A stretch of DNA of 64,000 nucleotides from contig JAPPES010000036.1 of NCBI GenBank assembly GCA_028824125.1, positions 15,476 to 79,475 on the forward strand. The letters are read 5' to 3'. Both the position numbers and the translations under genes were made by a program. Origin of the DNA: Candidatus Poribacteria bacterium. Lineage in GTDB: Bacteria > Poribacteria > WGA-4E > WGA-3G. Every line of letters begins with the position of its first letter. Within the stretch, counting starts at the first letter, position 1. Shown one piece after another: positions 10,474 through 27,854 of the stretch. A model generated the notes under the pieces. The model was not told the DNA's origin. It did no database searches and saw nothing but the letters and a program-made list of their open reading frames with translations.

Positions 10474-10481
10474 TTGCAAAG

Positions 10482-10507
10482 TAGTAGGCACACGCCGTGT
10501 GCCGTCC
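10482..10507. repeat. palindromic hairpin element gtaggcacacgccgtgtgccgtcca (likely bidirectional terminator / REP)
   Basis: A perfect 17 bp palindrome ggcacacgccgtgtgcc lies 8 nt after the SBP stop codon. The same element recurs inverted at 20430..20455. Confidence 0.6.
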
Positions 10508-10595
10508 ATCATATTTTCCCTAACGAATTATATAGCAGATTTGCGGTTAAGATACACTGTATAACCTAATGCTTTGTCAACATATTATTATTATA

Positions 10596-10879: not shown

Positions 10880-10912
10880 TATGCAATTTTGCACCACAAA
10901 ATCGCGTCTATA
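10880..10912 (+). promoter_or_regulatory. candidate ECF-type promoter (TGCAA-N16-CGCGTCTA) upstream of the sigma-fusion gene
   Basis: A CGCGTC element lies 40 nt upstream of the ATG. The same element is conserved upstream of all four paralogous sigma-fusion genes. Confidence 0.4.
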
Positions 10913-10947
10913 CTAATCAAAAGACCAATTTGCTATTGAGGTATCAG

Positions 10948-13920
10948 ATGATATACGATGATGCGAACTTGATTCAACGAACCTTAGAAGGGGATCAACA
11001 AGCGTTTGCAGAACTTGTGGAAAAATACCAAAAACAGGTCCACGCATTAGCGTGGCAGAAGATCGGTGATTTTCACATTGCCCAAGAGATTACACAGGAT
11101 ACGTTCCTTACGGCATATCACAAGCTCACGACGCTCAAAGACCCTAATCGTTTTGCGGGATGGCTCTATGTGATTGCGAACCGCAAATGCATCGCGTGGC
11201 ACCGAAAGAAGTCCCCACAACCACAATCTTTAGAAGCGATGAACCCGATTGAATTAGAGGAGGTATATTATTCAGTGTATATGACTCAAAAACGCGAAGA
11301 AGCAGCAAATCAAAAACGACGTGAAGTGGTGCAGAAGTTGCTCAGTAAGCTGCAAGAGAGTGAACGCACAGTTGTCAATCTGTATTACATCGCAGAAATG
11401 ACATGTGAAGATATTGGCAAATTTTTAGGCGTATCTCCAAATACCGTCCGCAGCCGACTTCACCGCGCACGCAACCGTTTAAGGAAGGAAGAAACGATGA
11501 TTAAGGAAAACTTAAGTAGCTTCCAACTGCCGACACAATTGACGGAAAACATCATGAAAGAGATTTCACACATCAACCCTGCTGCACCGTCCGGTAGCAA
11601 ACCTTTACTACCATGGGCAATTGCTGCTTCCACGTTAGCAGTTGTGTTGCTTATGCTCGGTTTTGGAAACCACCAGTACCTAACGCGTTTTCAGAAACCT
11701 TATAGTTTTGACGCTGCCACTGAAATGACGGTTGACATCATTGACGCACCAATAGTCGTGAACCTTGAGTCCAAACCTGATGTGCAGACGCAAATCGGAA
11801 GTTTTATTGCATTAGACGAACTCAATAATTCTGAACAACAACCTAATAATGCTTCTGCAGCGATTGCAGAAGCACAAGGAGACGAAATAGTGGAAGATTA
11901 CACAAAATGGGAATTGCCGAAAGAAGCGAAAGCGCGTTTTGGCAAAGGTGGGATTAATGTGCTTCGATTTTCACCAGATGGTAGACAACTCGCGGTAGGT
12001 AGTAGTATAGGTACTTGGCTTTATGATGTGAAAACGGGGAAAGAACTGTCTATGTTCCCCGGTAAATGCAAATTCATCACATTCTCTCCAGATGGCCGCT
12101 TCCTTGCGAATATTGTTACCGGGAAGGTAACCCAGTTGTGGGAAGTAGCTACCGGGCAGAAAGTATTATTCAATGATAGTTTACCGAAAGCCTCAGTATT
12201 GCGATTCTCTGAAGACGGTAAAACACTTTATGCTTTGAGTGCCGAGGGAGATTCAATCAGTCAGTTAGATGTTAAAACAGGAAAAGGGAGTGTAAAGCAT
12301 ACTGAAGAGCAAACAAGCGGGGAGTCTTTAGTTCTTTTTGCGCTCACACATGATAAATTTGCAGTCGGAACAGAAACTAAGATTGAATTGTGGGACACAA
12401 CGACCGGCAAAATACTGTCTACACTCAAGGGAAATATGTCTCTTTTAACCTTGGAATTTTCACCTGATGGCACACGTGTCGCGAGTGCAGGTAAGAGTAG
12501 CGATAACACAGTCACATTACAATTATGGGATACCGAAAGTAAGGAGTCAACTCTCCTCCATAAACACAAAAGGTGGGTCAACGCGTTAGCATTCTCTCCT
12601 GACGGAAAAATGCTGGCAAGCGGCGGGACTGATAAGACAGTGCAGTTGTGGGATTCCGCCACCGGTGAGCCTCTTACCACTTTCACAGGTCATAGCAGCG
12701 GCATCAATGCTTTAACATTTTCACCAGATAATCGCACACTTGCCAGTGGGAGTGCAGATGGCACAGTCCGGTTTTGGAATATTAAGACGGGAGATCCATT
12801 ACCCACCCGCATCTACCAACACACAATGGAGGTGGAAGCAGTGACTTTCTTTAAAGATAACGCCACGCTTGCAAGTGTCGCGTATGATGGGGTCGTTAGC
12901 TTGTGGGATGTGAAAACATTACAAAAAATCGATACCAAAACATTACGAAAAACTGATTTCTACCATAAAGAAGATCAAGATAGAGAATACCAAGATTGGT
13001 TATCGGCTGCAGCGTTTTCACCTGATGGGACAAAGATCGTCAGTGCTGGTGTAAAAGGTAACAGACTCTTCTCAGATTACGCTATGGCTGAGTATACAGA
13101 GGATCAATTGGTTCGTCTGAGTGATGTTAGGACAGGCCATGAATTGCAGACTTTAGCTAAGGAAGGAGGTTCCTCATTCGTGACTTTTTCACCTGATGGA
13201 AAAACGGTGGCATTCGCCAATTTTGGTAAGATTCGCGTATGGAATACGGAGACAGATGAGACTTTTGATATATCTCTCGATATGTTATCTCTCGATATAT
13301 CTCACTTAGATCAAAATGATATTGACAAGTTATCTGACCAACGTAAGTCAGAAATCAGTGCACTTAAGCCTGGTATCAGTGCTTTGGTTTTTTCACCGGA
13401 CGGTGAAAAACTTATCAGTGGAACCCATGGCGGAAAGGCCCAGATGTGGGATGTGAAAACGGGAGTTCCGTTAGCACGCCTTTTTGAAGGGAAGGAACCG
13501 ATAGTAGAAGGCATTCCCCCTAATATTCATATCACCTATCAGGAACATATTCGAACATTGGCATTCTCACCAAATGGGAATTTGATTGCTATAGCAAATA
13601 ACAAACGAACCCATTTGCTACGTTTGTTGGCAGGCCATAAACATTCCCTTCTTAAGGAAATTCCGCATAGTGCCTATGCGTTAGTGTTTTCACCAAATAA
13701 TACTTTGCTTGTTATTGGACTTAGAAACGGTGCAATTGAGCTATGGGATGTTGAAACTTGGGACAAACTTACCACACTCGATGGGCATTCAGGAGCAGTA
13801 GGAACGTTGGTGTTCTCACCCGATGGCAAAACACTCGTGAGTACAGGGCAAGATGGCACAATTCTTTTGTGGGATTGGGATGAGGTTCTAAAGGGTTCCA
13901 ACCGAGAGAAAAATAAGTAA
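10948..13920 (+). CDS. ECF sigma factor domain - single TM helix - WD40 beta-propeller fusion protein
   Basis: The N-terminus has sigma-70 region 2 (HALAWQKIGDFHIAQEITQDTFL...FAGWLYVIANRKC) and region 4 (ERTVVNLYYIAEMTCEDIGKFLGVSPNTVRSRLHRARNRL). A hydrophobic helix (LLPWAIAASTLAVVLLMLGF) follows. After that come many WD repeats (LWDTTTGK, LWDSATGE, LWDVKT...). The ATG at 10948 was chosen by alignment to the paralog N-termini (MIYDDANLIQRTLEGD), with GAGGT as RBS. Confidence 0.8.
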   Translation: MIYDDANLIQRTLEGDQQAFAELVEKYQKQVHALAWQKIGDFHIAQEITQDTFLTAYHKLTTLKDPNRFAGWLYVIANRKCIAWHRKKSPQPQSLEAMNPIELEEVYYSVYMTQKREEAANQKRREVVQKLLSKLQESERTVVNLYYIAEMTCEDIGKFLGVSPNTVRSRLHRARNRLRKEETMIKENLSSFQLPTQLTENIMKEISHINPAAPSGSKPLLPWAIAASTLAVVLLMLGFGNHQYLTRFQKPYSFDAATEMTVDIIDAPIVVNLESKPDVQTQIGSFIALDELNNSEQQPNNASAAIAEAQGDEIVEDYTKWELPKEAKARFGKGGINVLRFSPDGRQLAVGSSIGTWLYDVKTGKELSMFPGKCKFITFSPDGRFLANIVTGKVTQLWEVATGQKVLFNDSLPKASVLRFSEDGKTLYALSAEGDSISQLDVKTGKGSVKHTEEQTSGESLVLFALTHDKFAVGTETKIELWDTTTGKILSTLKGNMSLLTLEFSPDGTRVASAGKSSDNTVTLQLWDTESKESTLLHKHKRWVNALAFSPDGKMLASGGTDKTVQLWDSATGEPLTTFTGHSSGINALTFSPDNRTLASGSADGTVRFWNIKTGDPLPTRIYQHTMEVEAVTFFKDNATLASVAYDGVVSLWDVKTLQKIDTKTLRKTDFYHKEDQDREYQDWLSAAAFSPDGTKIVSAGVKGNRLFSDYAMAEYTEDQLVRLSDVRTGHELQTLAKEGGSSFVTFSPDGKTVAFANFGKIRVWNTETDETFDISLDMLSLDISHLDQNDIDKLSDQRKSEISALKPGISALVFSPDGEKLISGTHGGKAQMWDVKTGVPLARLFEGKEPIVEGIPPNIHITYQEHIRTLAFSPNGNLIAIANNKRTHLLRLLAGHKHSLLKEIPHSAYALVFSPNNTLLVIGLRNGAIELWDVETWDKLTTLDGHSGAVGTLVFSPDGKTLVSTGQDGTILLWDWDEVLKGSNREKNK

Positions 13921-14280
13921 ATACGTGAGTTCGGAAAAAGATTTAGGGTTATAGAGAAAGTCATGCGTCCTTGATTGCTGGCGTTGTGTGAATGGTTTTA
14001 TTGACGGGATACAAGAAGCGTGTTATAATAGTCCTGCAAACAATTAGTGTTCAACACGTGTTTGTACTTGCATTATCCTGAAGGCAGGTTCGCCTCCTGT
14101 CATCGGCGGGTGGCCGGGGATAATACACGTCCTGCGTGGAGACGAAAACCTTGCACTTAAAATTATTGTAAACCCGCTCAAAATTAGCGGAGGCTTTGAA
14201 AATTCAATCTGTTTTTGGAATAATGGGTAAAGGTTAAGGCAGAAAAAGTAAAATATAACACCAATAGGAGATATATTTCA

Positions 14281-16473
14281 ATGCCACACTCAAAATTCTC
14301 TTTCTTTTTATTCATTTTCCTATTAATCACAGTGGTTACTTTCATTGCACAACTTGAGGCAGAAGAGGTGAGCAACGAACAGGAGCGCGCGATAACACAA
14401 GAATTCATCACAGCGGCACAAAAATTCGTAGAACTTGGTGAAATAGATAAAGCAATAGAAATCTACGAACGAATTGTGAAGGGTACCCCCGATGATTTAG
14501 AATCTCGCGCACAACTCGCAACGCTTTACACCCGCACAAAACAATATGAAAAAGCTGCGCAAACATGGGAAAAATTGCTTGAAACTGACCCAGAAAACAC
14601 AAAATATCAAGATGGTCTTGTTTATAGTTTACGAGCTGTTGGTGAAGTGGACGAGGCATTTGAAATTGCGCAGGCATACATCCAAACGGAGCCAGAAGTG
14701 GGTGCCCATTATGCACGCCTCGCAAGGTTGTATGAGGCAGAAGGTAAGGTAGGTGAGGCCATTACCAACTACGAAAAAGCAATTGAATTGGCACCCGGTG
14801 ATGTACAAGTACAAACTTATCTCAAACTCGCAAACCATTATTTTTTAAATGAGGACATAGCGGCTGCTGAAAAAATATTGAAGAATGCCATGCTATACAC
14901 ACGATCAGAATTCGATAGGCGAGATATCGAACTGCAATTGATCAAACTCTATCTTTATCAGGGGAATTTGGGAGAAGTATTACAAAAGGTTGAAGCTGAA
15001 GGCATCCCACTCTCTTATGAAATATCAAATGCGAAAGAACGTGCACAGCACTTTCTCAACACTGGTGAATTGGAAAAATCTGCGGCTTATTTTAAGATAG
15101 CACTTGTAACAGCCAAGAGTTCTTATGATCGAGGTAGTATTTCTAATGAATTGCTCAAGGTCTACTTAGAACAAGACAGGACAGACTTGGCATTAGAACT
15201 CTACGAAGCAGAAGCATCAGAGCAGTCCAGATCAACACTTGTCGCAACAACTTTCGGCCCATTTGATATTAACGTCAAATTCGGTAGTGATGACGCACGC
15301 GAAATCCTGGTTAATACCTATAAAAATCGAGGGGAACTTGATGTGTTAAGAACGCTTTTAGAAGATAAACTTGAGAAAAACGCTGATAATCCTGCTGTTA
15401 TTGAAATGCTTGCTGAAATTTATTGGAATGTCAACGATTATCAGAAAGCTGCTGAAGCGTATCACGTCCTTAGCAAAGCAGAGTCGAACAATATCCGCAG
15501 CTTTTACTATGCAGCTGCTGCCTTCCAGAAAAGTAACCAGCCTGATATGGCAAAAGAGTTACTGAACCGAGCCGAAACCGCGCTTACATCTGTCAACTAT
15601 AGACAGGACGGATCATTCCTCGGCGCACTTGCTACCATCTGTCTTAAGAATGAAATGTATGAGCCGGCTATAAAACTCGCTGGTAACGCTATCATTGAAG
15701 CACAGAATTTCGTTGATCCGGATATAGAATTCATTTTGAATATCCGTAAAGATATCATTGAAGCACAGAATTCCGTTGATCCGGATATAGAACGCGTTGG
15801 TAACGCTATCATTGAAACACAGAATTCCGGTAACACTTTGGTTGTGAATGCATGTTTGAGGACCATTTGTAAAAGCCGCCTCGGCCTAGCTAAATACTAC
15901 AGTCAAAACAACATACCCGATAAAGCAATGGAACAGATGCAACAAACCGGCATTATTCATGAAAATGCGTGGTTGGTTCTCGGACCATTTGACAATACCA
16001 CAGGAATCGGATATGATACGGAGTACATTTTTGAAAACATGACACAGATTGATCTCACCGCAAAGTATGGGGGTGTCAACAAACAGATAAGTTGGAAAAA
16101 GTTTACGGATGCTGCTTTTGACGGTTTTATCGATCTCGGTAGGAATATCAATTGGCGTGTTGCTTATGCATGGGCAACTGTAACCTCACCTGATAAACGA
16201 GAAGTGTTTTTTAGATTTGGTAGTGATGACCAATCAAAAATATGGCTAAATGGCACAGAGGTATTCGCGGATACCAACGCTCAAACTGCAATACTTGACA
16301 GACACGCTATTCCTGTAACCCTCAAGGCAGGTAAAAACACTATCCTCGTCAAGGTTTGCAATGAGGAAATAGATTGGGGATTCTATCTACGGGTTACGGA
16401 TGCTGATGGAAAACCTTTCAAAGACTTGAAAATTAACAATATGCATGATAAATTGAAGAGTATGCATGAATAA
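14281..16473 (+). CDS. secreted TPR-repeat protein with a C-terminal ~180 aa beta-sandwich-like domain
   Basis: A signal peptide (MPHSKFSFFLFIFLLITVVTFIAQLEA) is followed by TPR-like helices. The C-terminal module is LGPFDN...WRVAYAWATVTSPDKREVFFRFGSDDQSKIWLNGTEVF...LVKVCNEEIDWGFYLRVTDADGKPF. Confidence 0.65.
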   Translation: MPHSKFSFFLFIFLLITVVTFIAQLEAEEVSNEQERAITQEFITAAQKFVELGEIDKAIEIYERIVKGTPDDLESRAQLATLYTRTKQYEKAAQTWEKLLETDPENTKYQDGLVYSLRAVGEVDEAFEIAQAYIQTEPEVGAHYARLARLYEAEGKVGEAITNYEKAIELAPGDVQVQTYLKLANHYFLNEDIAAAEKILKNAMLYTRSEFDRRDIELQLIKLYLYQGNLGEVLQKVEAEGIPLSYEISNAKERAQHFLNTGELEKSAAYFKIALVTAKSSYDRGSISNELLKVYLEQDRTDLALELYEAEASEQSRSTLVATTFGPFDINVKFGSDDAREILVNTYKNRGELDVLRTLLEDKLEKNADNPAVIEMLAEIYWNVNDYQKAAEAYHVLSKAESNNIRSFYYAAAAFQKSNQPDMAKELLNRAETALTSVNYRQDGSFLGALATICLKNEMYEPAIKLAGNAIIEAQNFVDPDIEFILNIRKDIIEAQNSVDPDIERVGNAIIETQNSGNTLVVNACLRTICKSRLGLAKYYSQNNIPDKAMEQMQQTGIIHENAWLVLGPFDNTTGIGYDTEYIFENMTQIDLTAKYGGVNKQISWKKFTDAAFDGFIDLGRNINWRVAYAWATVTSPDKREVFFRFGSDDQSKIWLNGTEVFADTNAQTAILDRHAIPVTLKAGKNTILVKVCNEEIDWGFYLRVTDADGKPFKDLKINNMHDKLKSMHE
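15683..15835 (+). repeat. in-frame tandem repeat (about 3 copies of ~48 nt) inside the TPR gene
   Basis: The unit atcattgaagcacagaattccgttgatccggatatagaa is repeated. It encodes AIIEAQNxVDPDIE. Confidence 0.7.
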
Positions 16474-16519
16474 TTCTAAAGTCTATCATAGTTATAACCT
16501 TAGGAGGGGATATATTTCA

Positions 16520-19500
16520 ATGCCACACTCAAAATTCTCTTTCTTTTTAATCATTTTCCTATTAATCACAGTGGTTACTTTCGTTGCAGAACTTGAGGCA
16601 GAAGAGGTGAGCAACGAACAGGAACGCGCGATAACACAAGAATTTATCGCAGCGGCGCAAAAATTCGTAGAACTTGGTGAAATAGATAAAGCAATAGAAA
16701 TCTATGAACGAATTGTGAAAGGCACACCTGAAGACTTGGAATCTCGCGCACAACTCGCAACACTTTACACACGCACAAATCAGCACGAAAAAGCTGCGCA
16801 AACCTACAGCAAACTGCTTGAAGCTGACCCAGAAAACATAAAATATCAAGATGCGCTTGTGAATAGCTTACAAACTGCTGGCAAACACAACGAGGCCCTT
16901 GAAATCGCGCAGACTTATGTTCAAATGCAGCCGGAAGTAGGTGTCCATTACGCACGACTCGCAAGACTTTATGAGGCAGAAGGTAATGAAGCTGCAGCCC
17001 TCGCAAACTATAAAAAAGCTACTGTATTCGAATACGGTGACGAAAAAATCTATCTCAGACTCGCAGAACATTATTTTCTTAATGATGACATAGATGCTTC
17101 TGAAAAAGCATTGAAAAACGCCATGATATACACTACATCAAAATGGGATCAAGAAAGGATTGAACGGCAATTGGTCAACCTCTATCGTTATCAGGGAAAT
17201 TTAGAAGAGATGCTACAGAAGGCTGAAGCGGAAGGCACACTCACATTCGAGATGCAAAAACAACGGGCACGACACTTTTACAATATTGGTGAATTGGAAA
17301 AAGCTGCTGTTCACCTTAAGAAAGCTTTGGAAATGACTAATAGTTCTTATGAGCAAAATAAAATTTCTAATGAGTTGCTCAATGTCCATTTAAAACAAGA
17401 TAGTTTAGACTTGGCATTAGAACTCTACGAGACAGAAGCATCAAAGCAGACCGACTCAACATACATCTCAACATCTTTCAGTGTATCCGGTATTATAAGG
17501 ACATTAGGTGGTGATGATGCACGCAAAACTTTGATAAATGCCTATAAAAACCGAGGGAAACTTGATGTATTGAGAACCCTTTTTGAAGGTAAACTTGAAA
17601 AGGATGCTGCCAACCCTGCTATTATTGAAATGCTCGCTGAACTTTACTGGGATACCAATGATTATCAGAAAGCTGCTGAAGCATATCACATGCTTAGCAA
17701 AACTAAACCGATGAAGCGTAGGAATATTCGCAGCTTTTATCATGCAGCTGCTGCCTTTCACAAAAGCAACCAGCCTGATATGGTGAAAGCGATATTGAAC
17801 CAAGCCGATACTGAGCTTGCAGCCAGCAGCAACTTTAAGGAGGACACGTCATTCCTCGGGGCACTTGCCACTATCTGCATTAATAGTAAAATGTATGCCC
17901 CGGCTATAAAACTCGCCGATGCCGCTGTCACTGAAGCAGAGGCTTCCGGCGACAATTGGGAACTGGAGTATCTGTATGGGATTCTGGCGAAGAGTTACCT
18001 CGGCGCAAAACGTTATAAAGAGGCTTTTGAGGCATGTCAGCAGGTAGCAGATGTTGATGAGAATAGCTACGTGCGAGGAAGAGCAGAAATGGAAATGAAT
18101 AAAATTGCCAAAGAAGGAAAACTTTATGAAAAATGGATACCGGAACAACTGAAGAAGACTGCGGAGAATCCTAACGATCCGAAACCCATCTTGAAACTCG
18201 CCCAAAGTTACGAAGCCACTGATGAAATTGAAGAAGCGATTGCACAATATGAAAAACTCACTGAACTTGAACCAGAAAAATCACAGTGGCACAAAAAACT
18301 TGGAGAACTTTACCAAAATCTACCGCAAGAGAGCCGTGAAATAGGCACTGCGTCTGATGAGTTAAGCCCCGAACAATTGGCGAAATCAATAGCTGCTTAT
18401 GAAAAAGCAGTTGAACTTGAACCGACTTCATACCAACTTTACGACCTATTGGCGAAATCCCATATCAAATCTGATCGCACTTCTGATGCCGAAAAGATAT
18501 ATCGTCGGGCATTGGATGCCTCTCTAAAACAAAGTGAACATGATTCTGCAATTCGCGCTATTATCCAACTTTACGCTGATGAAGGGCAAGAAAACAAACA
18601 GATCGCTTTCCTTGAAGAGATACGTCAAAAATTGGCGAAAATGGATGATAGTGCTGTCCTGCACGAACTTTTAGGGGATCTCTACAAAAAAGTAGGTGAT
18701 TCCGAAAAAGCGGAACTCGCCTATGCCAAATGGTTGCAAATTCGGCAGAAAGCACTCAACAGCGCACAGAGTGCATGGAGTTATCATGTTTTTGCTAATA
18801 AACTTCTTGACAAAGGACTTTATCCAGAAATAGCACTAAATTTCGCGAAACGTGCGTTCCAAAAAAGTACAGATGCAAATTATATATATCCGACAACACT
18901 TGGACGTGCATGTGTTGCCAATGGACTTTATGATGAGGCACTAAAACATTTCAAACATGCGTTAAGTGTCATATCCGACGAGCATTATTCGGATATGTTT
19001 TGGGAGGAAATCGCTGAAGCAATCAAGAATGCCAATGACAAGGAACGTTACGTCCAAATGTTGGAAGCATTGACGAATGCCATTCCAGTGGAAAATTCAA
19101 GTTCTCGTGCAAATGTCTACCGGACTTTAGCGCAATTTTATAGTGAAAATAATATGCCTGAAAAAGCGGAAAACTACCTTTTAAAAACCGGTTTTGTTCC
19201 AGAAACTGCCTGGATTACCTTAGGCACATTCGACAATAAGGATAATATGGGTCCCTATATCGCTTACATCCCAGAGGAAGCCACACAGATTGACACAACT
19301 GCAAAGTATTATGGAAAAGATAAACTCATTCGTTGGCAAAAAGTGGATGACAACAAAATAGACGGAATGATCTGGCTCGGTAGTGACATTGATTGGACTG
19401 CAACTTATACATGGGCAATTGTCTCTTCACCTGATGAACGCGATATTACAATCCGATTTGATAGCGATGACCAAGGAATAGTCTGGTTAAACGGAAAAGA

Positions 19501-20317
19501 GGTTTTTAGGCATGATAGAATGAGTGGGGCACAAGTTGACCGCTACATCGTTCCTGTTACCCTGAAGCAAGGAGAAAACACTGTTCTCCTCAAGGTCTGC
19601 AATGCAGAAATATATACGTATTTTTTTATGCGGCTTACGGACGTGGACGGTAATCCGTTTAAAGATTTGAAGTTCAAAAACGCTGATGAGTTGCTGAACG
19701 CGCCGCCTCCTACCAAACCGATCTTCCACGTAAACGTAAACCTCGGCCTAGCTGAATACTATAGTAAAAACAACATGCCCGATAAGGCGATGGAACAGAT
19801 TCGACAAACCGGTGTCATTCATGAAAATGCATGGCTGGTTCTTGGACCATTTGATAACACGGTGGGAATCGGATACAATACGAAATACATTCCCGAAGGC
19901 ACAACGCAGATTGATCTCACCGCAAAGTATGAAGGTGTCAACGAGCAGATAAGTTGGAAAAAGTTTACGGATGCTGCTTTAAACGGCTTTATTGATTTCG
20001 GTGAGGATGTCAATTGGCGTGTTTCCTACGCAATGGCAACCTTAACCTCTCCTGATGAACGAGAAGTGCTATTCCGATTTAGTAGTGATGACCAATCAAA
20101 AATATGGCTAAATGGTACAGAGGTATTCGCGGATGCCAACGCTCAATCAGCAATACTTGACAAAAACACTATTCCCGTAACGCTCAAGACAGGTAAAAAT
20201 ACCATCCTCGTCAAGGTTTGCAATGAGGAGATGAGTTGGGGATTCTATCTGCGGGTTACGGATGTTGATGGAAAACCTTTCAAAGACTTGAAAATTAACA
20301 ATGTGCAAGATAATTGA
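16520..20317 (+). CDS. secreted TPR-repeat protein, tandem paralog with two copies of the C-terminal beta-sandwich-like domain
   Basis: The first ~450 nt, including the RBS region (TAGGAGG) and signal peptide, are ~95% identical to 14260..14700. The LGxFDN...WLNG...KVCN...DGxPFKDLK module occurs twice (~19.15-19.69 kb and 19.74-20.31 kb). Confidence 0.7.
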   Translation: MPHSKFSFFLIIFLLITVVTFVAELEAEEVSNEQERAITQEFIAAAQKFVELGEIDKAIEIYERIVKGTPEDLESRAQLATLYTRTNQHEKAAQTYSKLLEADPENIKYQDALVNSLQTAGKHNEALEIAQTYVQMQPEVGVHYARLARLYEAEGNEAAALANYKKATVFEYGDEKIYLRLAEHYFLNDDIDASEKALKNAMIYTTSKWDQERIERQLVNLYRYQGNLEEMLQKAEAEGTLTFEMQKQRARHFYNIGELEKAAVHLKKALEMTNSSYEQNKISNELLNVHLKQDSLDLALELYETEASKQTDSTYISTSFSVSGIIRTLGGDDARKTLINAYKNRGKLDVLRTLFEGKLEKDAANPAIIEMLAELYWDTNDYQKAAEAYHMLSKTKPMKRRNIRSFYHAAAAFHKSNQPDMVKAILNQADTELAASSNFKEDTSFLGALATICINSKMYAPAIKLADAAVTEAEASGDNWELEYLYGILAKSYLGAKRYKEAFEACQQVADVDENSYVRGRAEMEMNKIAKEGKLYEKWIPEQLKKTAENPNDPKPILKLAQSYEATDEIEEAIAQYEKLTELEPEKSQWHKKLGELYQNLPQESREIGTASDELSPEQLAKSIAAYEKAVELEPTSYQLYDLLAKSHIKSDRTSDAEKIYRRALDASLKQSEHDSAIRAIIQLYADEGQENKQIAFLEEIRQKLAKMDDSAVLHELLGDLYKKVGDSEKAELAYAKWLQIRQKALNSAQSAWSYHVFANKLLDKGLYPEIALNFAKRAFQKSTDANYIYPTTLGRACVANGLYDEALKHFKHALSVISDEHYSDMFWEEIAEAIKNANDKERYVQMLEALTNAIPVENSSSRANVYRTLAQFYSENNMPEKAENYLLKTGFVPETAWITLGTFDNKDNMGPYIAYIPEEATQIDTTAKYYGKDKLIRWQKVDDNKIDGMIWLGSDIDWTATYTWAIVSSPDERDITIRFDSDDQGIVWLNGKEVFRHDRMSGAQVDRYIVPVTLKQGENTVLLKVCNAEIYTYFFMRLTDVDGNPFKDLKFKNADELLNAPPPTKPIFHVNVNLGLAEYYSKNNMPDKAMEQIRQTGVIHENAWLVLGPFDNTVGIGYNTKYIPEGTTQIDLTAKYEGVNEQISWKKFTDAALNGFIDFGEDVNWRVSYAMATLTSPDEREVLFRFSSDDQSKIWLNGTEVFADANAQSAILDKNTIPVTLKTGKNTILVKVCNEEMSWGFYLRVTDVDGKPFKDLKINNVQDN

Positions 20318-20326
20318 GGGGTGTGC

Positions 20327-20499
20327 ATAATTATTTTGCACATCAACACAGACAGGGACAGGCGCCATGTGCCGCTTGATTCATAGAAATGCTGTTTAAT
20401 CGCAATTCATTGCGCCTCTTTGAACTTGTGGACGGCACACGGCGTGTGCCTACTACCTTTAAGCGCATATTTAAATCGGAATTATTTATGCACACCCCT
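20327..20499. repeat. MITE-like element between convergent genes
   Basis: 19 bp terminal inverted repeats (gggtgtgcataattatttt / aattatttatgcacacccc) flank a segment containing the ggcacacggcgtgtgcc palindrome, the same palindrome as at 10482. The right arm overlaps the stop codon of the minus-strand sigma-fusion gene. Confidence 0.55.
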
Positions 20500-23400
20500 C
20501 ACTTAAGTTGGGTTGCGTCAAGCGTAATTTCCCATAACAGCAACGTGTCATCTCTACTTCCGCTTACGAGCGTTTTTCCATCCGGACTAAACGCGACATT
20601 CGTAACCTTGTCTGTATGCCCCACAAGGACAAGGATTTGTTGGATTGGACTTGTCTGCGTATTATACAGATAGATGGTGTTATCCGCGTTTCCACTTGCC
20701 AGTATTTTTCCATCTGGACTGAACGCCACGCTTAAAACTTCATTCAGATGCTCTACGGTTTTGAGGAGTTCCGCTGTTTGCACATCCCACACACGGATAG
20801 TGCCATCATGGCTCCCGCTTGTGAGTGTTTTTCCATCCGGACTGAACGCCACACTAAAGACAACACCCGTATGTCCTGTAAAGGTTTTCAGAAGTTCACT
20901 TGTCTGCACATCCCATAAACGGACGGTCGTATCTTTACTCCCACTTGCGAGCGTTTTTCCATCCGGACTGAACGCCACGCTCATAATCCAGTCGGTATGC
21001 CCTGAGAAAGTTTCGCGGAGTTCACCTGTCTGCACATCATACAAATGGAGGGTTTTATCCCAACTTGCACTTGCCAGGGTGTTACCATCTGGACTGAACG
21101 CTAAACTTGTGACAGTGTCTTTATGTCCTGTGAGTGTTTTGCGGGGTTTGCCAGTCTGGGCATCCCATAGACGGATAGCGCGAGCATAACCGCTGCTTGC
21201 CAGTGTTTTATTGTCGAAACTGAACGCTAAGCACGTGATCCCCGATTCACGTTGATCTTTAAGTGTCCGGTGAAGTGCGCCTGTCTGTGCATCCCATACA
21301 CGGATGATGTCATCATCAATAGAATTTACCAACATTTTTCCATCCGGGCTGAACACCACGCTTAAAACTTCGTTCATATACCCTTTAAGCGTTTTTTGAC
21401 GTTTGCCAGTTTGCGTATCCCACACGCGAATAGTCGTATCATAACTCCCAGTAGCGAGTGTTTTTCCATCCGGACTGAATACCACGTTAAGGACATCGTG
21501 CGTATGTCCTATAAGGATTCGGCGGCGTTCACCTGTTTGTGCATCCCATAAACGGACAGTGCCTTCATTCATTGCACTTGCCAGCGTTTTTCCATCCGGA
21601 CTGAACGCCATTTCATAGACAACGTCCCTTTCTTGTCCTTTGAGCGTTTTTTGGAGTTTTCCTGTCTGTACGTTCCACAAACGGATGGGGGTATCCCAAC
21701 CCCAAGCCCAAGTAGCGAGTGTTTTTCCATCCGGACTGAACGCCATTTCCAAAATCTCCTCCGTATGCTCAAGGTCAAAGGTTTTTCGGACTTCGCCTGT
21801 CTGCGTATCCCACAATCGGATAGAATTATCTCTACTTGCACTTGCCAACGTAGTGCCATCCCCACTGAGCCAAATACTAAAAATCCTATCTGTATGCCCC
21901 TCAAGAGTTGTATGGCTTTTGCCTGTCTGCGTAGCCCACAGTCGTATTGTGTTATTTCTACTGGCACTTGCCAGCATTTTGCCATCCCCACTAAAGACCA
22001 CGTTCGTGATCAGGGACATATTGTCTGTCATCGTCCGAAGATGTGTGCTGGTGCGCGTATCCCACAAGCGTATGCTGCCATCATCACTCCCACTTGCCAA
22101 TATGTTTCCATTTGGATTGAATGCTATGCTCTGGACCCAGTCCGTATGTTCTGTTAGCAGGTCAAGTTCTTTTCCGCTGTCTGAATCATAGATCCACACG
22201 CCAATTGAACTTGCAACAGCGAGCTGCTTACCATTCGGGGAATACGCAATTTTATTTATCCCTCCTTTACCAAGACGGACTTTAGCACCTTCGGGTAAGT
22301 GCCATTGCTGTGAATCTGGAGCATCTTTATCCGAGACCTCCTGCACAGCCACATTGTTCTTATTCTGCACATGAGAACTTGCAGGCTGCGTCTGGAAATT
22401 CGGTTGAGTTTCGAGGTCACCCACTGTGCGCGAGTGACCGACACTGTAATCTAAAACTAATGTATCAGCAGATAAATCTAAACGAAGCAACTTACTCACA
22501 TCGGTATTTAGCTGACACTGTTTCGTGAGAAATACGTCTTTGAATAGGACATTCTCTCCATTCTGTTTTTCCGAAGATTCTTTTGGAACAATAGACTTCT
22601 CAATTCTCTTAGGAAACCAGACATCTGGCAAGTATTCGTGATACTCAATTTTTCGGGTATTGATATAGGTTACACCCGCTTTGAAGGGACTCCATCCCAG
22701 CGGATCATCTGGTTCAATGTACTCTCTTTCTGATTTAACCAAACGGAAACCTTTGTCATGTGAAATCCAAAGTTTATAGTGCTGAGGAGATATTTCGTGA
22801 TCTCCAATGGTCCGAGCAGGTTTTGTTAGACGAATAACGGTTGTCTTTTCGCCATCCAATACCTCGCTTCCGATAATTTCACTTTCATGTTTTTCAAGCA
22901 ATTGCCAAAGCGGTTGCGATAGATAGGTATTGTCTGATACATTATTTGGAAAGGTGAGCCATAACCTCGGATCTTGGTCAACAGGCATGATCGCCCAATG
23001 CGGTCGAACAGCATATCCAACATTGTGTTTATAAACTTCCACCATTGTCTCTCCTACAAAAAGGACAAAGTAGGTTTTATCTTTCTCAATGACTCTGTAG
23101 CTGTTCTGTAACTCGCCTTTGACAATGCGCGCATCGTCAGCAATTTCAATGCCTACCTGTTTGAACGCTTGTTGGATCTTCTTTAGGACTGTAATCTCCT
23201 TGTTCAGTTTAATCTCAGCTTTGAAAAGAAGATTATCTGGTGAAGATACCTCCCAGTGTTGTTTTCCATCCCAATACTGAATTAGACCGAAACCTCCTGC
23301 TCCTCCATCTACCCGAACTTTCTCACCTTCAAATGTCAATTTATATTCATTTTTTTTGATCTTCGGCTCTATATTACGTTCAATGCTCAAATTACCTGGT

Positions 23401-24428
23401 GGAATTGGATTTCCACTAATCTTATAATTTCTATGACGTTCAATGATGAAATCACCAGTTACGGAGGTAACAGCATTATCGTAGTGCTTTATCTTAGCGA
23501 TAATCGTGTCTAAGTCAAGCGAAGCGGCGTCATCGGTTTGTTTGCCAGCTCCATTGTTCTTACCCGATGCATCGGGACTTTCAAGCTGCGTTCGTACATC
23601 CGGTTTTACATTAAGATTCTCCACAATAGGTACATCAATGAGTTCAACTACCATCTCAGCTTGTGCATCCAAACTATACGGTTTCTGGAAACGTACCAAG
23701 TATTGACTACTGATACCAAGCATCAATACAATCAATATTAAACTTGATGCCCCAATGACCCATGGTACCAAGGGTTTACCACCAGAAGGCGCGGCAGGTT
23801 TAAGTCGTGCGACTTCTCGCATAATATTATCGGTTAGGTTCGGTGAGATTTGGTAATTCTCTAAAGCTTCTCTTATCATTGTTTCCTCCTTTTGTAAACG
23901 TTGTCTGGCACGGTAAAGCCGATTCTTAATCGCACTTACCGATACACCTAAAAACTTGCTTATCTCTTCATACGTCATTCCCCCGAGGTAGTAGAGCGTG
24001 ATGACCGTGCGGTCACTCTCTTGTAGTTTTGCAAGCAACTTTTTAACGACTTCACGCTGTGCTTCTACTGATGCTCGTTCGTTTTCCGCAATGACATAAT
24101 TGGAATAAGTTGCCTTTTCCAACTCTGCATCGCAGGTGTGTTCCAAGGACTGTGTTCGCATACGTTTCTGACGAAGCCATGCCTTGCAACGGTTCGACGC
24201 TATCACATAGAGCCAACTTGCAAAAGACTGTGATTCCTTCAGCGTTGATAGTTTCTGATGCGCTTTCAGGAATGTTTCCTGTGTGATGTCCTCAGCAATG
24301 TGGAAATCTCCAATTTTCCGCCACGCTAACGCGTGAACCGACTTCTGATATTTTCTTACAAGCGCGGAGAACGCAGTATCATCACCATCAAGGATACGTT
24401 GGATGAGTTCAACATCAGCATTTTTCAT
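20499..24428 (-). CDS. ECF sigma factor domain - TM helix - ~400 aa middle domain - double WD40 propeller fusion protein (1309 aa)
   Basis: The N-terminus is MKNADVELIQRILDGDDTAF, with sigma region 2 (HALAWRKIGDFHIAEDITQETFL) and region 4 (DRTVITLYYLGGMTYEEISKFLGVSVSAIKNRLYRARQRL). The TM helix is LVPWVIGASSLILIVLMLGI. The C-terminus carries about 14 WD repeats. Confidence 0.8.
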   Translation of the reverse strand: MKNADVELIQRILDGDDTAFSALVRKYQKSVHALAWRKIGDFHIAEDITQETFLKAHQKLSTLKESQSFASWLYVIASNRCKAWLRQKRMRTQSLEHTCDAELEKATYSNYVIAENERASVEAQREVVKKLLAKLQESDRTVITLYYLGGMTYEEISKFLGVSVSAIKNRLYRARQRLQKEETMIREALENYQISPNLTDNIMREVARLKPAAPSGGKPLVPWVIGASSLILIVLMLGISSQYLVRFQKPYSLDAQAEMVVELIDVPIVENLNVKPDVRTQLESPDASGKNNGAGKQTDDAASLDLDTIIAKIKHYDNAVTSVTGDFIIERHRNYKISGNPIPPGNLSIERNIEPKIKKNEYKLTFEGEKVRVDGGAGGFGLIQYWDGKQHWEVSSPDNLLFKAEIKLNKEITVLKKIQQAFKQVGIEIADDARIVKGELQNSYRVIEKDKTYFVLFVGETMVEVYKHNVGYAVRPHWAIMPVDQDPRLWLTFPNNVSDNTYLSQPLWQLLEKHESEIIGSEVLDGEKTTVIRLTKPARTIGDHEISPQHYKLWISHDKGFRLVKSEREYIEPDDPLGWSPFKAGVTYINTRKIEYHEYLPDVWFPKRIEKSIVPKESSEKQNGENVLFKDVFLTKQCQLNTDVSKLLRLDLSADTLVLDYSVGHSRTVGDLETQPNFQTQPASSHVQNKNNVAVQEVSDKDAPDSQQWHLPEGAKVRLGKGGINKIAYSPNGKQLAVASSIGVWIYDSDSGKELDLLTEHTDWVQSIAFNPNGNILASGSDDGSIRLWDTRTSTHLRTMTDNMSLITNVVFSGDGKMLASASRNNTIRLWATQTGKSHTTLEGHTDRIFSIWLSGDGTTLASASRDNSIRLWDTQTGEVRKTFDLEHTEEILEMAFSPDGKTLATWAWGWDTPIRLWNVQTGKLQKTLKGQERDVVYEMAFSPDGKTLASAMNEGTVRLWDAQTGERRRILIGHTHDVLNVVFSPDGKTLATGSYDTTIRVWDTQTGKRQKTLKGYMNEVLSVVFSPDGKMLVNSIDDDIIRVWDAQTGALHRTLKDQRESGITCLAFSFDNKTLASSGYARAIRLWDAQTGKPRKTLTGHKDTVTSLAFSPDGNTLASASWDKTLHLYDVQTGELRETFSGHTDWIMSVAFSPDGKTLASGSKDTTVRLWDVQTSELLKTFTGHTGVVFSVAFSPDGKTLTSGSHDGTIRVWDVQTAELLKTVEHLNEVLSVAFSPDGKILASGNADNTIYLYNTQTSPIQQILVLVGHTDKVTNVAFSPDGKTLVSGSRDDTLLLWEITLDATQLK

Positions 24429-24469: not shown

Positions 24470-24520
24470 CATATAGTGACGCGACTTGAAGCGAAAAAGT
24501 CTCAAGTTTTTTCAAAAAAG
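24470..24520 (-). promoter_or_regulatory. candidate ECF-type promoter element (CGCGTCACTAT) upstream of 20499..24428
   Basis: The rc sequence aagtCGCGTCACtatatg lies about 45 nt upstream of the ATG. The motif is shared with the other three paralog upstream regions. Confidence 0.4.
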
Positions 24521-27800: not shown

Positions 27801-27854
27801 GGTTTCATCGTCTGCAAGAATTCGGTGAATAAGTGCAACATCGTCTTTTTTCAT
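24813..27854 (-). CDS. ECF sigma factor domain - TM helix - BNR/Asp-box repeat beta-propeller fusion protein (1013 aa)
   Basis: Sigma regions 2 and 4 are present (HALAWRKVGDFHIAEDITQDTFL; ERTVMTLHYLGEMTVEEISRFLGVSGSTIKSRLRRARQRL). The TM helix is LVPWIAAASSVVLIVLMLGI. The C-terminus carries multiple SxDxGxTW motifs (SLDDGETW, STDKGQSW, SIDNGNTW, SIDGGLSW, SSDKGQSW). Confidence 0.8.
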   Translation of the reverse strand: MKKDDVALIHRILADDETAFTELVKKYQKPVHALAWRKVGDFHIAEDITQDTFLKVYQRLHTLKDPNQFSGWLYVITTNLCNTWIRKKRIRTQPLEDAETTMTPKDAYSQHVTADRATTAAETQREVVKTLLAKLKESERTVMTLHYLGEMTVEEISRFLGVSGSTIKSRLRRARQRLQKEETMIREALDHFQISPNLTDNIMREVARLKPTPSVSKPLVPWIAAASSVVLIVLMLGIGSQYLVRFQQPYSLDAQTEMKVELINAPIVQNLEVEPDIQNQLGSANTLGKNNNDGQKPDEVLLAAVQSDEKGVSAPKQQWIQENSPVGSGELMTLLPTPEGEIYIVYDEGWEDILYKLPVDGTEWQPVCDISSLLPDTLYDAVSMVKSNDMIYIVLTLDGRQYSNELYGSLDDGETWVSFGKCPAGWVNGFEVLDDRFYLALEHEIFVSENIGKTWNVVGEGLTGEVSTLKVIQNTLFAATSTGLYHLDGGSWQRLQFPVNEAKKIVSFVGTENHLYVLGEWDWKNVGPQERTWWLFRSTDKGQSWTNITPTNALPIMGPEPFDKEPHATLVAVKNTLLLIGWRGAAVIRSIDNGNTWTLEKTSDISLMPYSVHNAVVLNENTLYLQGESGIYRSIDGGLSWTRFYTGLESSIIDLICVKTNKEQNISNYIYAMFSGSMGSKWVFKSSDKGQSWRVVNPEIQIQEHIPSFTRIAESDGVLYAKSRGPTSDALMSLYRISEDRNTLVPIKGMPVFRSSSLYNLLHYRQPAKGSDKPYFEQLQESSVGANQFFKQLAQMGSIHKNFRRLYQDPLYESGLKGPFAVSGDTFYLEYNFKLLRWEPGDTEWYDTGQEETVRLSRKIIEKELKLAVSGDTVYVGKRDGHLVVSYDRGNNRSWIDLTSALPFPVETFKEIMFAGSTVYVATDAGVTVSDNGIKWRAITDAEGTNLIMERLAADGTTVYGVTKGTGIYRLESGVWEKIISEIPDGVTSLVVDGSTLYVGTQNNGMLHYNLEQ

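Follow-up and report, generated by a model that had tools for sequence, protein, structure and literature searches.

Tandem TPR proteins with lectin-like C-terminal modules next to sigma-factor fusion genes in Candidatus Poribacteria: possible trans-encoded glycan sensors

Main finding

Two tandem genes, g1 and g2, in a 64,000-nucleotide stretch of DNA (the window) from Candidatus Poribacteria, an uncultured sponge-symbiont bacterium, encode TPR proteins that end in one or two PA14-like beta-sandwich modules and lie among genes in which an ECF sigma factor is fused, via a transmembrane (TM) segment, to a propeller. We tentatively propose, at somewhat less than even confidence, that both proteins are extracytoplasmic glycan-binding partners of these sigma fusions, i.e., the detached, trans-encoded counterpart of a sensor tail.

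Gene organisation and protein anatomy

The region 14260-20317 is filled by two same-strand open reading frames, the paralogues g1 (14281..16473, forward strand, 730 aa) and g2 (16520..20317, forward strand, 1265 aa). The public gene call for g1 is identical (ENA contig ROBB21-1_SAMN13943213 scaffold_541), and the length of 1265 aa for g2 is also that of the public call. Although the list of open reading frames begins g2 at 16466, the ATG at 16520 is common to all family members and is preceded by a conserved AGGAGrTATATTTCA box; judged from these sequence features, the true start is 16520. Because g2 begins 46 nt past the g1 stop codon, the two genes are probably co-transcribed. Upstream of g1 lies a candidate sigma-70-like promoter, TTGACG-17-TATAAT with a TG extension (14001..14029, forward strand), which agrees with 11 of the 12 consensus positions in a scan for consensus match alone and would give a leader of approximately 250 nt.

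As the original prediction held, both products are TPR proteins, with Pfam TPR_14 scores far above the cutoff of 23.5 bits (82 for g1 and 104 for g2), and both have a strongly hydrophobic N-terminus, either a signal peptide or a signal anchor, which makes export probable. Hydropathy places this segment at 14281..14361 in g1 (forward strand; MPHSKFSFFLFIFLLITVVTFIAQLEA), and its g2 counterpart occupies the homologous position 16520-16600 (forward strand); in both proteins, the best 19-aa Kyte-Doolittle window begins at residue 7 (mean 2.5), and no second comparable window was found along either chain. The TPR/all-helical array of g1 (14386..15840, forward strand, approx. residues 36-520) was delimited with Pfam TPR families and BLASTP against g2, and a low-confidence single-sequence AF2 model is all-helical to approx. 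residue 555. The homologous block of g2 shares 66% amino acid identity over residues 1-489 (BLASTP) and is accompanied by an additional second TPR block. An imperfect tandem triplication in g1 (15683..15846, forward strand; 54-63 nt units coding for NAIIEAQN.VDPDIE), which was found by repeat search and is not in the TRF output, marks the junction where a g2 segment (approx. residues 490-1075) is missing from g1.

The C-terminal module

Local HMM and BLASTP searches agree with the earlier count of one module in the first protein and two in the second. The g1 unit (15868..16446, forward strand) consists of a helical hairpin and a PA14/galactose-binding-like beta-sandwich that starts at 15964, whereas g2 carries units 2a (19058..19687, forward strand) and 2b (19685..20308, forward strand), which are 50% and 80% identical to the g1 module at the amino acid level. 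The module had been sized at ~180 aa; its presence stands, but the sandwich measures ~165 aa and the repeated unit, with the preceding hairpin, ~205 aa. It had also been described as unusual, a description at odds with any match to a common characterised domain. Foldseek and profile searches give such a match at the level of the fold only, since the fold is PA14-like and there is no match at the family level. The g1 and g2 modules stay below the cutoff of every Pfam and NCBIfam model (Pfam PA14, 12.9-21.8 bits vs. a cutoff of 24), so that the module is unusual as a family, but not as a fold: on the evidence of modelling, it is the common PA14/GH2-N/galactose-binding-like beta-sandwich. The AF2 model of the module (pLDDT 86) finds sugar-bound PA14 structures as its top Foldseek matches, in a search that does not tell PA14 and GH2-N-type domains apart.

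A broadened profile, A2, reaches the PA14 sensor of the anti-sigma factor RsgI3 (E = 2e-5), setting the family motif 'GSDDg.kvWlNG' on 'TDDGVRLWVDG' of RsgI3. It also matches Glyco_hydro_2_N, RhaB_D2/PF21557, and CBM_35 weakly (E = 1e-4 to 5e-4), and these matches to galactose-binding-like domains cover vWlNG...L..G.N.l.vkv; a single family member, from locus L047, scores above the RhaB_D2 cutoff, with 37.6 bits. Over 188 domain instances, conservation is 83-89% at S87, D88, and D89 and 82% at N/Q133, the position of the Tyr that stabilises the cis-Asp of PA14 is Val/Ile, and W3, GPF, W44, and Y68 form the family's own signature. In the PA14 domains of RsgI, a DcisD pair together with Q/N (D86, D87, and Q130) holds a sugar-contacting calcium (PMC6852018). 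By analogy, the modules most likely bind carbohydrate via the conserved SDD...N/Q as a putative calcium-type site.

Poribacteria show a massive expansion of TPR-(LamG)-module proteins (700-3800 aa), which include giant relatives of 3200-3800 aa. Among the 70 full-length members from related loci, all carry the module within 15 aa of the C-terminus and 61 carry a hydrophobic stretch at the N-terminus. In loci L002 and L003, the family is flanked by transposases, and gene order varies among close relatives (short-long here and long-short in L006). The strictly C-terminal placement in all 70 full-length poribacterial members, together with the 111 of 188 full-length instances among database-wide cluster representatives that finish within 30 aa of the C-terminus, could mean that the module is no ligand sensor at all and serves as a sorting or anchoring signal, comparable to cell-wall anchors or T9SS C-terminal domains; Kamke et al. 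mention poribacterial repeat proteins with putative sorting domains of the Por type. We consider this highly improbable. The module is twice as large as T9SS C-terminal domains, neither TIGR04183 nor another sorting domain was matched among NCBIfam models at E <= 0.1, other lineages place it in tandem copies and also internally or N-terminally, and its conserved residues agree with a PA14-type sugar/calcium site.

Gene conversion at the 5' end

The original prediction proposed gene conversion from an identity of ~95% over the first ~450 nt, including the RBS and signal peptide, with a much more diverged remainder. The conversion itself is borne out, over a tract of approximately half that length: identity falls from 96% across the first 200 nt to 90.7% across 300 nt and 86.2% across 450 nt. 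In g1, the tract (14266..14480, forward strand, ~215 nt; partner copy in g2 at 16505-16719) spans the RBS box, the signal/anchor segment, and the first TPR helix. Between 14270 and 14480 (211 nt), g1 and g2 differ at 8 positions (96% identity), with a sharp breakpoint at 14481; the following 780 alignment columns diverge by 24.7%, and at that rate the binomial probability of no more than 8 differences in 211 nt is 1.3e-16. The likeness of the signal segment belongs to the converted tract, but that of the RBS reflects a box conserved family-wide and lies outside the conversion signal. Likewise, strong divergence describes the middle of the genes, but not their last ~580 nt (the module region), where identity (86%) is above that of the middle.

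Synonymous divergence between the genes is 0.04 in codons 1-40, compared with 0.5-0.75 elsewhere (~0.58 in codons 73-490). In its first 200 alignment columns, g1 shares 94.5-96% identity with g2 and the g2 orthologues of other genomes (L006 and L011), but only 73.7-88% with g1 orthologues, whereas in columns 241-1020 it is 97% identical to its closest orthologue (L021) and 75% to g2. Because of this low synonymous divergence and these orthologue comparisons, conversion of a g1 acceptor by a g2-type donor is supported at the sequence level. Since the window is a metagenome scaffold and the sample probably contains several Poribacteria strains, an assembly chimera could in principle mimic such a tract; however, it would require crossovers at two points within 215 nt, the copies differ at those 8 positions and share no exact run longer than 47 nt, and the unique flanks run on unbroken at both sides. 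Moreover, tandem paralogues in an independent genome (L023) show similar 5' and promoter homogenisation, and mosaic identity patterns are general across the family, which leaves a chimera with very little probability.

Relationship to the sigma fusions

The pair was correctly placed among sigma-fusion genes, as all four flanking genes, which fall within a 20-kb part of the window, encode ECF-sigma/propeller fusions according to Pfam. Upstream, 360 nt before g1, is an ECF sigma-TM-WD40 propeller fusion of 996 aa (10930..13920, forward strand). Downstream, on the reverse strand, are a 1309-aa ECF sigma-TM-WD40 fusion with an unassigned region between the TM and WD40 parts (20499..24428, converging on g2) and two ECF sigma-TM-BNR/sortilin-like propeller fusions of 1013 aa (24813..27854) and 995 aa (28025..31012). 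An ECF-type promoter-like motif, TGCAAT-N16-CGCGTCT, precedes the 10930 gene (10882..10909, forward strand), and a motif search located such motifs before the three reverse-strand genes at 24477-24504, 27905-27933, and 31061-31089 (all reverse strand). In related loci, 28 of 43 sigma-fusion genes have the same motif in front of them.

Fused versions are one line of evidence for a partnership. Sigma, TM, WD40, TPR, and module parts occur in a single polypeptide in L064, L065, L070 (two genes), and L072 and in representatives P0048 and P0051. The 10930 protein aligns end to end, at 45-49% identity, with residues 1-984 of the L064 protein (1385 aa) and residues 5-1006 of P0051 (1257 aa), and it ends exactly where both run on into a TPR segment and the C-terminal module. 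In g2, the TPR stretch ahead of the module is homologous to the linker of these fusions (E = 1e-9 to 2e-9). In L007, L008, and L018, an orthologue of the 10930 gene is followed after 92-94 nt by a TPR-module gene on the same strand, and orthologues of the 20499..24428 gene (91-94% identity) adjoin g2 orthologues in L006 and L011.

Nonetheless, both families are abundant and might often fall side by side, with the fusions being incidental products of domain shuffling. No sigma fusion is present in the covered flanks (about 10 kb) of 21 of 44 TPR-class relatives, sigma fusions also occur in the flanks of 4 of 36 giant-gene loci, four lie within 20 kb in this window alone, and the variable gene order and neighbouring transposases noted above point the same way. 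However, a sigma fusion lies within 1 kb in 14 of 44 TPR-class relatives but in none of the 36 giant-class ones (Fisher P = 1.5e-4), a comparison of loci from related MAGs, which do not count as independent samples. The same-strand sigma-TPR pair with a gap of ~92-118 nt recurs with different TPR subtypes, the fusions recur as well, and the promoter motif is shared, which makes the lack of any functional relation unlikely. The relation on which the original prediction speculated is thereby strengthened by adjacency, fusions, and motif, but an obligate link is not: because 21 of 44 TPR-class relatives and nearly all giants have no sigma fusion nearby, the partnership is facultative at best.

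A different question is whether the proteins perceive signals or are merely outputs, i.e., secreted eukaryote-like repeat adhesins or host-interaction factors in which a TPR scaffold with a lectin tail would bind glycans of the sponge matrix or cell surface and whose genes the sigma fusions, in some genomes, would merely transcribe. Repeat proteins (TPR and WD40) are hugely expanded in Poribacteria, and a role in host interaction has been proposed (PMC3909097 and PMC8163846). RTX adhesins and yeast flocculins use PA14 domains as lectins for adhesion, and the giant relatives lie away from sigma genes. The ECF-type motif recurs before two TPR-module genes in L023 and before genes for secreted LRR proteins (L007, L018, and L033), the pattern expected of regulon members; its presence before the LRR genes fits a regulon output as well as a co-sensor. 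It was not found in the region upstream of g1, which speaks against an output role and, together with the sigma-70-like consensus promoter there and the 360-nt gap to the sigma gene, also counts against our own proposal. An output role further leaves the covalent fusion of the TPR-module tail to the extracytoplasmic sigma-TM-WD40 end in several genomes unexplained, and we regard it as possible but somewhat doubtful. The sequence data on the whole suggest that TPR-module proteins work with adjacent membrane-bound sigma-factor sensors.

Comparison with known systems

The closest known system is the tandem PA14 sensor carried by the anti-sigma-I factor RsgI3 of Clostridium thermocellum (PDB 6QE7); the PA14 lectin of a Marinomonas RTX adhesin (6X95 and 5J6Y) is another close comparison. 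With RsgI3, the module has in common the core sDDg..vW.nG (HMM alignment), a conserved DD...N/Q reminiscent of the DcisD-N/Q calcium site (PMC6852018), occurrence as a dyad, and, in the fused Poribacteria versions, a place at the extracytoplasmic end of proteins that signal through a sigma factor. However, identity to the PA14 systems is only 11-13%, the module stays below the Pfam PA14 cutoff, and it has its own signature and lacks the stabilising Tyr. Unlike in RsgI3, it resides on a separate TPR protein rather than on an anti-sigma factor, and the partner is an ECF sigma with its own membrane anchor rather than a SigI/RsgI pair. Sugar-binding domains of glycosidases and sialate 9-O-acetylesterase (7KMM) are likewise galactose-binding-like, with weak profile matches to the module, but g1 and g2 have no catalytic domain and their modules stay under all cutoffs.

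ECF sigmas with fused C-terminal extensions, both transmembrane and extracytoplasmic, include ECF57 (WD40-like repeats) and ECF52 SCO4117 (a carbohydrate-binding domain), and IutY is a sigma/anti-sigma fusion (PMC8999054). The neighbours of g1 and g2 resemble these in having sigma2/sigma4, one TM segment, a large extracytoplasmic propeller, an autoregulation-type motif, and relatives that end in a lectin-like module; the difference is that here separate TPR proteins supply the carbohydrate-type module in trans. By analogy, activation of the Poribacteria sigma fusions is assumed to involve proteolysis. The eukaryote-like repeat proteins described from single-cell genomes and MAGs of the same phylum comprise the same repeat classes (TPR, WD40, and LRR), frequently with signal peptides or TM helices, as here; the searched passages of these papers (PMC3909097 and PMC8163846) tally repeats by Pfam family and do not mention the C-terminal module, the sigma fusion, or the promoter motif. 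In the literature searched, no paper brings together Poribacteria and ECF or sigma factors.

Conclusions

Together with the sigma fusions, g1 and g2 do not constitute a new kind of system. In the arrangement that we propose, the N-terminal signal peptide or anchor would bring both proteins out of the cytoplasm, to the periplasm or the surface, where the long TPR solenoid could offer a docking surface for other proteins and the one or two C-terminal beta-sandwiches of PA14/galactose-binding type would bind carbohydrate. The proteins would thus stand in trans for the tail that is fused to ECF sigma-TM-WD40 proteins elsewhere in Poribacteria. The module may report a glycan of the host matrix, of a food polysaccharide, or of the bacterium's own envelope, and the TPR part may be coupled to the propeller of the adjacent sigma fusion. 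Release or activation of the latter's sigma domain would follow, and this domain would act at TGCAAT-N16-CGCGTC promoters.

Organization of the tandem genes and their products

The region 14260-20317 is occupied by two plus-strand genes, g1 and g2, which encode paralogous TPR proteins (ORF list). g1 (14281-16473, +) encodes 730 aa. The g2 ORF (+) is listed from 16466; the start common to all relatives is the ATG at 16520, which is preceded by the family-wide AGGAGrTATATTTCA box and gives a protein of 1265 aa, as does a public gene call on the 94-kb source contig (ENA ERZ23495471, ROBB21-1_SAMN13943213 scaffold_541). Because only 46 nt lie between the g1 stop and the g2 start, the two genes probably form one transcript. 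Each protein has one strongly hydrophobic segment, located at the N-terminus (MPHSKFSFFL[FI]IFLLITVVTF...), and neither has a second, which fits a predicted signal peptide or N-in signal anchor. The only above-threshold Pfam families are TPRs, and several TPR models exceed their gathering scores in both proteins (g1: TPR_14 82.4 bits, cutoff 23.5, and TPR_19 74 bits, cutoff 25; g2: TPR_19 119.9 bits and TPR_14 104.2 bits). The proteins share 66% identity over the N-terminal ~490 residues and 80% over the last ~190; an extra block of ~590 residues in g2 comprises more TPRs and a second copy of the C-terminal module, so that the original prediction of two modules in the second protein holds. A single-sequence AF2 model of full-length g1 was poor (pLDDT 53) and is good only as a rough helix/strand map.

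At the exact junction where the ~590-residue block is missing from g1, there is an imperfect tandem triplication (15683-15846) of a 54-63-nt unit that encodes NAIIEAQN.VDPDIE. TRF detected no tandem arrays in the g1/g2 region; there were no Rfam families across the whole window, and no tRNAs were found.

Gene conversion at the 5' end of g1

It had been proposed that the first ~450 nt of the two genes are ~95% identical owing to gene conversion. The high identity is real, but its length was overstated: identity is 96% at 200 nt, 90.7% at 300 nt and 86.2% at 450 nt. Just 8 differences fall within 14270-14480, and the run of third-position changes that begins at 14481 marks the best breakpoint; at the 24.7% divergence seen over the next 780 columns of the alignment, the probability of finding no more than 8 differences in 211 nt is 1.3e-16. 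Synonymous divergence (dS) is 0.04 in codons 1-40 and 0.5-0.75 in every block beyond them (0.58 over codons 73-490); therefore, protein-level selection does not explain the 5' identity. The tract and the rest of g1 are also phylogenetically incongruent. In columns 1-200, g1 is 94.5-96% identical to g2 and to its long orthologs in two related loci (L006L and L011L) and 73.7-88% identical to the g1 orthologs, whereas in columns 241-1020 it is 97% identical to its nearest ortholog (L021s), 85-86% to the remaining short-type orthologs and 75% to g2. The g1 signal-peptide sequence MPHSKF... is of the long-gene type, the short-gene type being M[VAT][RHC]SKL....

Judged by the dS values, the breakpoint at 14481 and the ortholog comparison, the proposed gene conversion is borne out: the discrete tract of low divergence, synonymous sites included, is a conversion of ~215 nt with a g2-type donor and g1 as the acceptor, spanning the RBS box, the export signal and the first helix of g1. 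Selection on the signal peptide or mRNA was ruled out as the cause of the identity because synonymous sites are identical too and g1 orthologs have the other 5' type. That the tract is a metagenome-assembly chimera is highly improbable, as this would need two crossovers and the longest exact run shared by g1 and g2 is merely 47 nt. Such exchanges are common in the family: mosaic identity patterns occur elsewhere in its alignment and the two tandem paralogues of another locus (L023) have ~260 nt of upstream sequence and the 5' coding end in common. Gene conversion by itself is ordinary biology; here it shows that the export-signal end of the paralogues is homogenised while the binding parts diverge.

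Fold and predicted sugar site of the C-terminal module

The module had been described as unusual. In one sense it is, as no Pfam or NCBIfam family reaches its cutoff for the module in scans of whole g1 and g2 or of isolated modules. All of the weak matches are to sugar-binding beta-sandwiches, namely CBM_35 (18.8-19.3 bits, cutoff 28), Glyco_hydro_2_N (15.3-16.7 bits, cutoff 28), RhaB_D2 (12-15 bits per isolated module, 19.1 bits over the entire g2, cutoff 27), BetaGal_gal-bd and PA14 (PF07691; 12.9-16 bits for single modules and 21.8 bits for whole g2, against a gathering score of 24 bits). PA14 is matched at E <= 0.01 by 2 of 29 diverse family members, and some distant members score 24.6-25.1 bits.

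The fold, however, is a common one, a PA14-type beta-sandwich or beta-barrel, according to both Foldseek and a broadened profile. The best Foldseek matches are sugar-bound Marinomonas PA14 structures, and module comparisons gave 10.8 for the PA14 sensor of the anti-sigma-I factor RsgI3 (6QE7), 10.6-10.7 for carbohydrate-binding PA14 domains of RTX adhesins, about 10 for GH2 N-terminal sugar-binding domains and 9.7 for the RetS periplasmic sensor domain. Against PDB sequences, a narrow profile (A1) found nothing significant (best E = 0.088), whereas a profile broadened with distant members (A2) matched RsgI3 at E = 2e-5, with its 'GSDDg.kvWlNG' core aligned on 'TDDGVRLWVDG', as well as sialate 9-O-acetylesterase (E = 1e-4) and GH2 beta-glucuronidases (about 5e-4). 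The family signature, derived from 188 domain instances, comprises W3, G7-P8-F9, W44, Y68, S87-D88-D89, W94, N96, D112, G123, N125, K130, N/Q133 and W138.

In RsgI PA14, an Asp-cis-Asp pair (D86, D87) and Q130/N131 bind a sugar-contacting calcium, with 43 residues between D87 and Q130 (PMC6852018). The DD of the module aligns with that of the RsgI3 PA14, and its DD...N/Q spacing is 44 residues; from alignment and spacing, we infer a putative site parallel to the RsgI calcium site. One difference is that characterised PA14 lectins have a Tyr that stabilises the cis-peptide, whereas the module has Val/Ile there. The module is therefore placed as a divergent, Pfam-unclassified family of the PA14/galactose-binding-like fold class and not as a novel fold, and it is predicted that it most probably binds carbohydrate.

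Distribution of the module family

Searched with the profile, 1.84 billion cluster representatives yielded 15,016 proteins at E <= 1e-3, a number that falls to 9,162 at E <= 1e-10 and to 615 when E <= 1e-30 is required; more than 9000 sequence clusters (E <= 1e-10) belong to a lectin-like domain that Pfam and NCBIfam models do not capture in the proteins scanned here. In other lineages, the module is joined with HEAT repeats, ThuA, FN3/purple-acid-phosphatase-N or WD40. Species-representative genomes gave 353 confirmed matches, and the 80 retained, which represent 76 distinct loci, all belong to Candidatus Poribacteria or to unnamed MAGs, with several frequently present in one genome. The poribacterial carriers are one TPR protein family of ~700 to ~3800 aa, often also with Laminin_G_3; among 70 full-length members, 61 have an N-terminal hydrophobic segment and all have the module within 15 residues of the C-terminus. 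A C-terminal sorting signal is nonetheless a most unlikely role for the module, as TIGR04183 (T9SS/Por sorting domain) has no NCBIfam match at E <= 0.1 in g1 or g2, and a T9SS-type sorting domain was rejected on this ground.

The nearest g2 orthologs (L006, 3797-8266; L011, 5801-10273) encode 1490 aa and have a LamG domain that g2 of the window lacks (Laminin_G_3 at residues 616-783 when the L006 ortholog was scanned against Pfam); L006 has the long gene ahead of the short one, the opposite of the window. Giant TPR-LamG-module proteins of 3200-3800 aa, with ORFs of about 10 kb, occur in L016, L020, L024, L027, L031, L032, L036, L047 and other loci, and their genes practically never adjoin sigma-fusion genes. 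The L047 protein has four module copies, one of which exceeds the Pfam RhaB_D2 cutoff at 37.6 bits. In a closed 5.9-Mb Poribacteria genome (L002, 4663-10543; L003, 331-5660), the homologous TPR-LamG gene is annotated separately from a 180-aa module ORF that lies 40 nt away, and several transposase genes interrupt or flank the TPR genes, which suggests family members decayed or rearranged by IS elements.

Association with sigma-fusion genes

The neighbours 10930, 20499, 24813 and 28025 (named by start coordinate) each combine, in one polypeptide, ECF-type sigma70 regions 2 and 4 (Sigma70_r2, Sigma70_r4_2 and Sigma70_ECF above the Pfam cutoff), one TM segment (hydrophobic stretch read from the sequence as LLPWAIAASTLAVVLLMLGF) and a large extracytoplasmic propeller of the WD40 or BNR/sortilin-like type. 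By analogy only, such proteins might be activated via regulated proteolysis or partner binding (PMC8999054). In the 1309-aa protein of 20499-24428, ~440 residues between the TM segment and WD40 (about 280-720; 22269-23588, -) have no Pfam match at E <= 1e-3.

The original prediction took the co-location of the tandem genes with these sigma fusions to suggest a functional relationship. In the fetched loci, a sigma-fusion gene is present with 23 of 44 TPR-class relatives vs. 4 of 36 giant-class relatives (Fisher P = 1.1e-4), and one lies within 1 kb for 14/44 vs. 0/36 (Fisher P = 1.5e-4; the loci are phylogenetically non-independent). In L007, L008 and L018, TPR-module genes that belong to different subtypes are preceded on their own strand, at a distance of 92-94 nt, by an ortholog of the 10930 type (64-79% identity), and in L010 a remoter relative of this type (45%) is found 118 nt upstream; more such orthologs lie upstream in L021 and L030 (71-80%), and genes of the 20499 and 24813 types are syntenic with the g2 orthologs of L006 and L011.

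The two parts also occur as one polypeptide, in the order sigma-TM-WD40-short TPR-module, in L064, L065, L070 (two genes) and L072 and in the cluster representatives P0048 and P0051. Along its entire length, the 10930 protein can be aligned to L064 residues 1-984 (45%) and P0051 residues 5-1006 (49%), and it ends precisely where these two proteins run on into the TPR-module tail, and the TPR stretch preceding the g2 module is homologous to the linker of the fused proteins (E = 1e-9 to 2e-9). No pseudogenised TPR-module tail was detected in the 13921-14280 spacer, where tblastn gave the end of the WD40 gene alone. A further protein, P0053 (340 aa), has an ECF sigma domain joined straight to a hairpin and the module, with neither TM nor WD40 propeller; it probably arose from a P0051-type fusion by internal deletion or is a pseudogene of one.

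Candidate promoters and intergenic elements

The four sigma genes of the window are preceded, about 44-56 nt upstream of the start, by TGCA[AC][CT] (or TGAGAC)-N16-17-(C/T)GCGTC(A/T) at 10882-10909 (+), 24477-24504 (-), 27905-27933 (-) and 31061-31089 (-). In related Poribacteria loci, 28 of the 43 sigma-fusion genes are preceded by this ECF-type motif; its ECF promoter architecture suggests that the sigma-fusion genes may be autoregulated. The 10930-type version (ATGCAATTTTGCA.CACAA..TCGCGTCTATAC) recurs ahead of a tandem pair of TPR-module genes in L023 (822-849 and 5890-5917, with near-identical ~260-nt upstream regions), ahead of two giant TPR genes and ahead of genes for secreted LRR proteins in L007 (about 640-667), L018 (about 4636-4663) and L033 (about 18031-18058), which hints at a putative regulon of exported repeat proteins.

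Adjacency, fusion and the promoter motif are three independent observations that tie TPR-module genes to sigma fusions, and they lend the suggested functional relationship comparative support. That the two families, both abundant, are co-located by chance is accordingly quite unlikely. An obligate pairing is nevertheless contradicted: conservation of the neighbourhood, clear for the 10930-type genes upstream in L007, L008 and L018, is partial, since for about half of the TPR-class relatives there is no sigma fusion in the vicinity. The upstream region of g1 likewise counts against an obligate partnership, as it has a sigma-70-like consensus promoter match (14001-14029); comparison of this region with those of the sigma genes revealed neither the ECF-type motif nor a common 9-12-mer.

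Several repeats lie in the surrounding spacers. A 28-nt palindromic element, GTAGTAGGCACACGCCGTGTGCCGTCCA, has exactly two copies in the 64 kb, at 10481-10508 (+) and inverted at 20429-20456, which bracket the block of sigma 10930, g1 and g2; a REP- or terminator-like element is one possible identity, a marker of a rearranged block another. The g2 and 20499 genes converge, and their stop codons are spanned by a 31-nt inverted repeat (20306-20336/20480-20510) whose arms are 84% complementary and separated by 143 nt. As RNA, the 216-nt region has an unusually stable predicted fold (-70 kcal/mol, z = -3.6), and it may represent a bidirectional terminator or a small insertion. In the spacer that precedes the sigma-WD40 gene there is a perfect 24-nt hairpin (10623-10646/10653-10676; GATGGGCTTGAAAGTAGGCGGGAA and its reverse complement), and further GC-rich hairpins occur in neighbouring spacers.

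Proposed role and significance

The original finding is real but more ordinary than first proposed on two counts, the conversion tract being short and the fold common; the third, co-location with sigma fusions, is more interesting because it has genuine comparative support. The kinds of protein involved are known ones: PA14-like lectin domains, TPR scaffold proteins and ECF sigma factors with fused sensors. The best-supported reading, which we hold tentatively, is that g1 and g2 would be exported TPR adaptors that bind glycans and work together with the sigma-TM-propeller proteins, as a trans-encoded form of the sensor tail that other Poribacteria have in covalent linkage. Such a system would resemble RsgI/SigI, which senses polysaccharides (PMC6852018), and ECF sigmas with fused sensor extensions (PMC8999054). 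The main rival, possible if somewhat doubtful, is that g1 and g2 are outputs of the regulon, i.e., secreted lectin-tailed repeat proteins for interaction with the host or matrix. This accords with the 'eukaryote-like protein' literature (PMC3909097, PMC8163846). The promoter data fit outputs and co-sensors alike, whereas the fused sigma-TM-WD40-TPR-module proteins favour co-sensors.

Sponge symbionts such as Poribacteria are uncultured, and their huge TPR, WD40 and LRR sets are usually just counted as 'eukaryote-like repeats', without a mechanism. Literature searches found nothing that combines Poribacteria with sigma factor/WD40 or extracytoplasmic function, or PA14 with sponge symbiont. The handles gained here are a lectin-like domain family, its ties to ECF sigmas by fusion and neighbourhood, and a candidate promoter motif; in combination, they make a testable hypothesis on how symbionts sense glycans and control host-interaction proteins. 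A more far-reaching reading, in which Poribacteria would sense glycans through ECF sigma-TM-propeller proteins with exported PA14-like-tailed TPR partners, fused or in trans, under dedicated TGCAAT-N16-CGCGTC promoters and controlling a secreted TPR/LRR repertoire, is speculative and rather unlikely. If true, it would be a previously undescribed glycan-sensing arrangement and would link the perception of host or food glycans to host-interaction factors.
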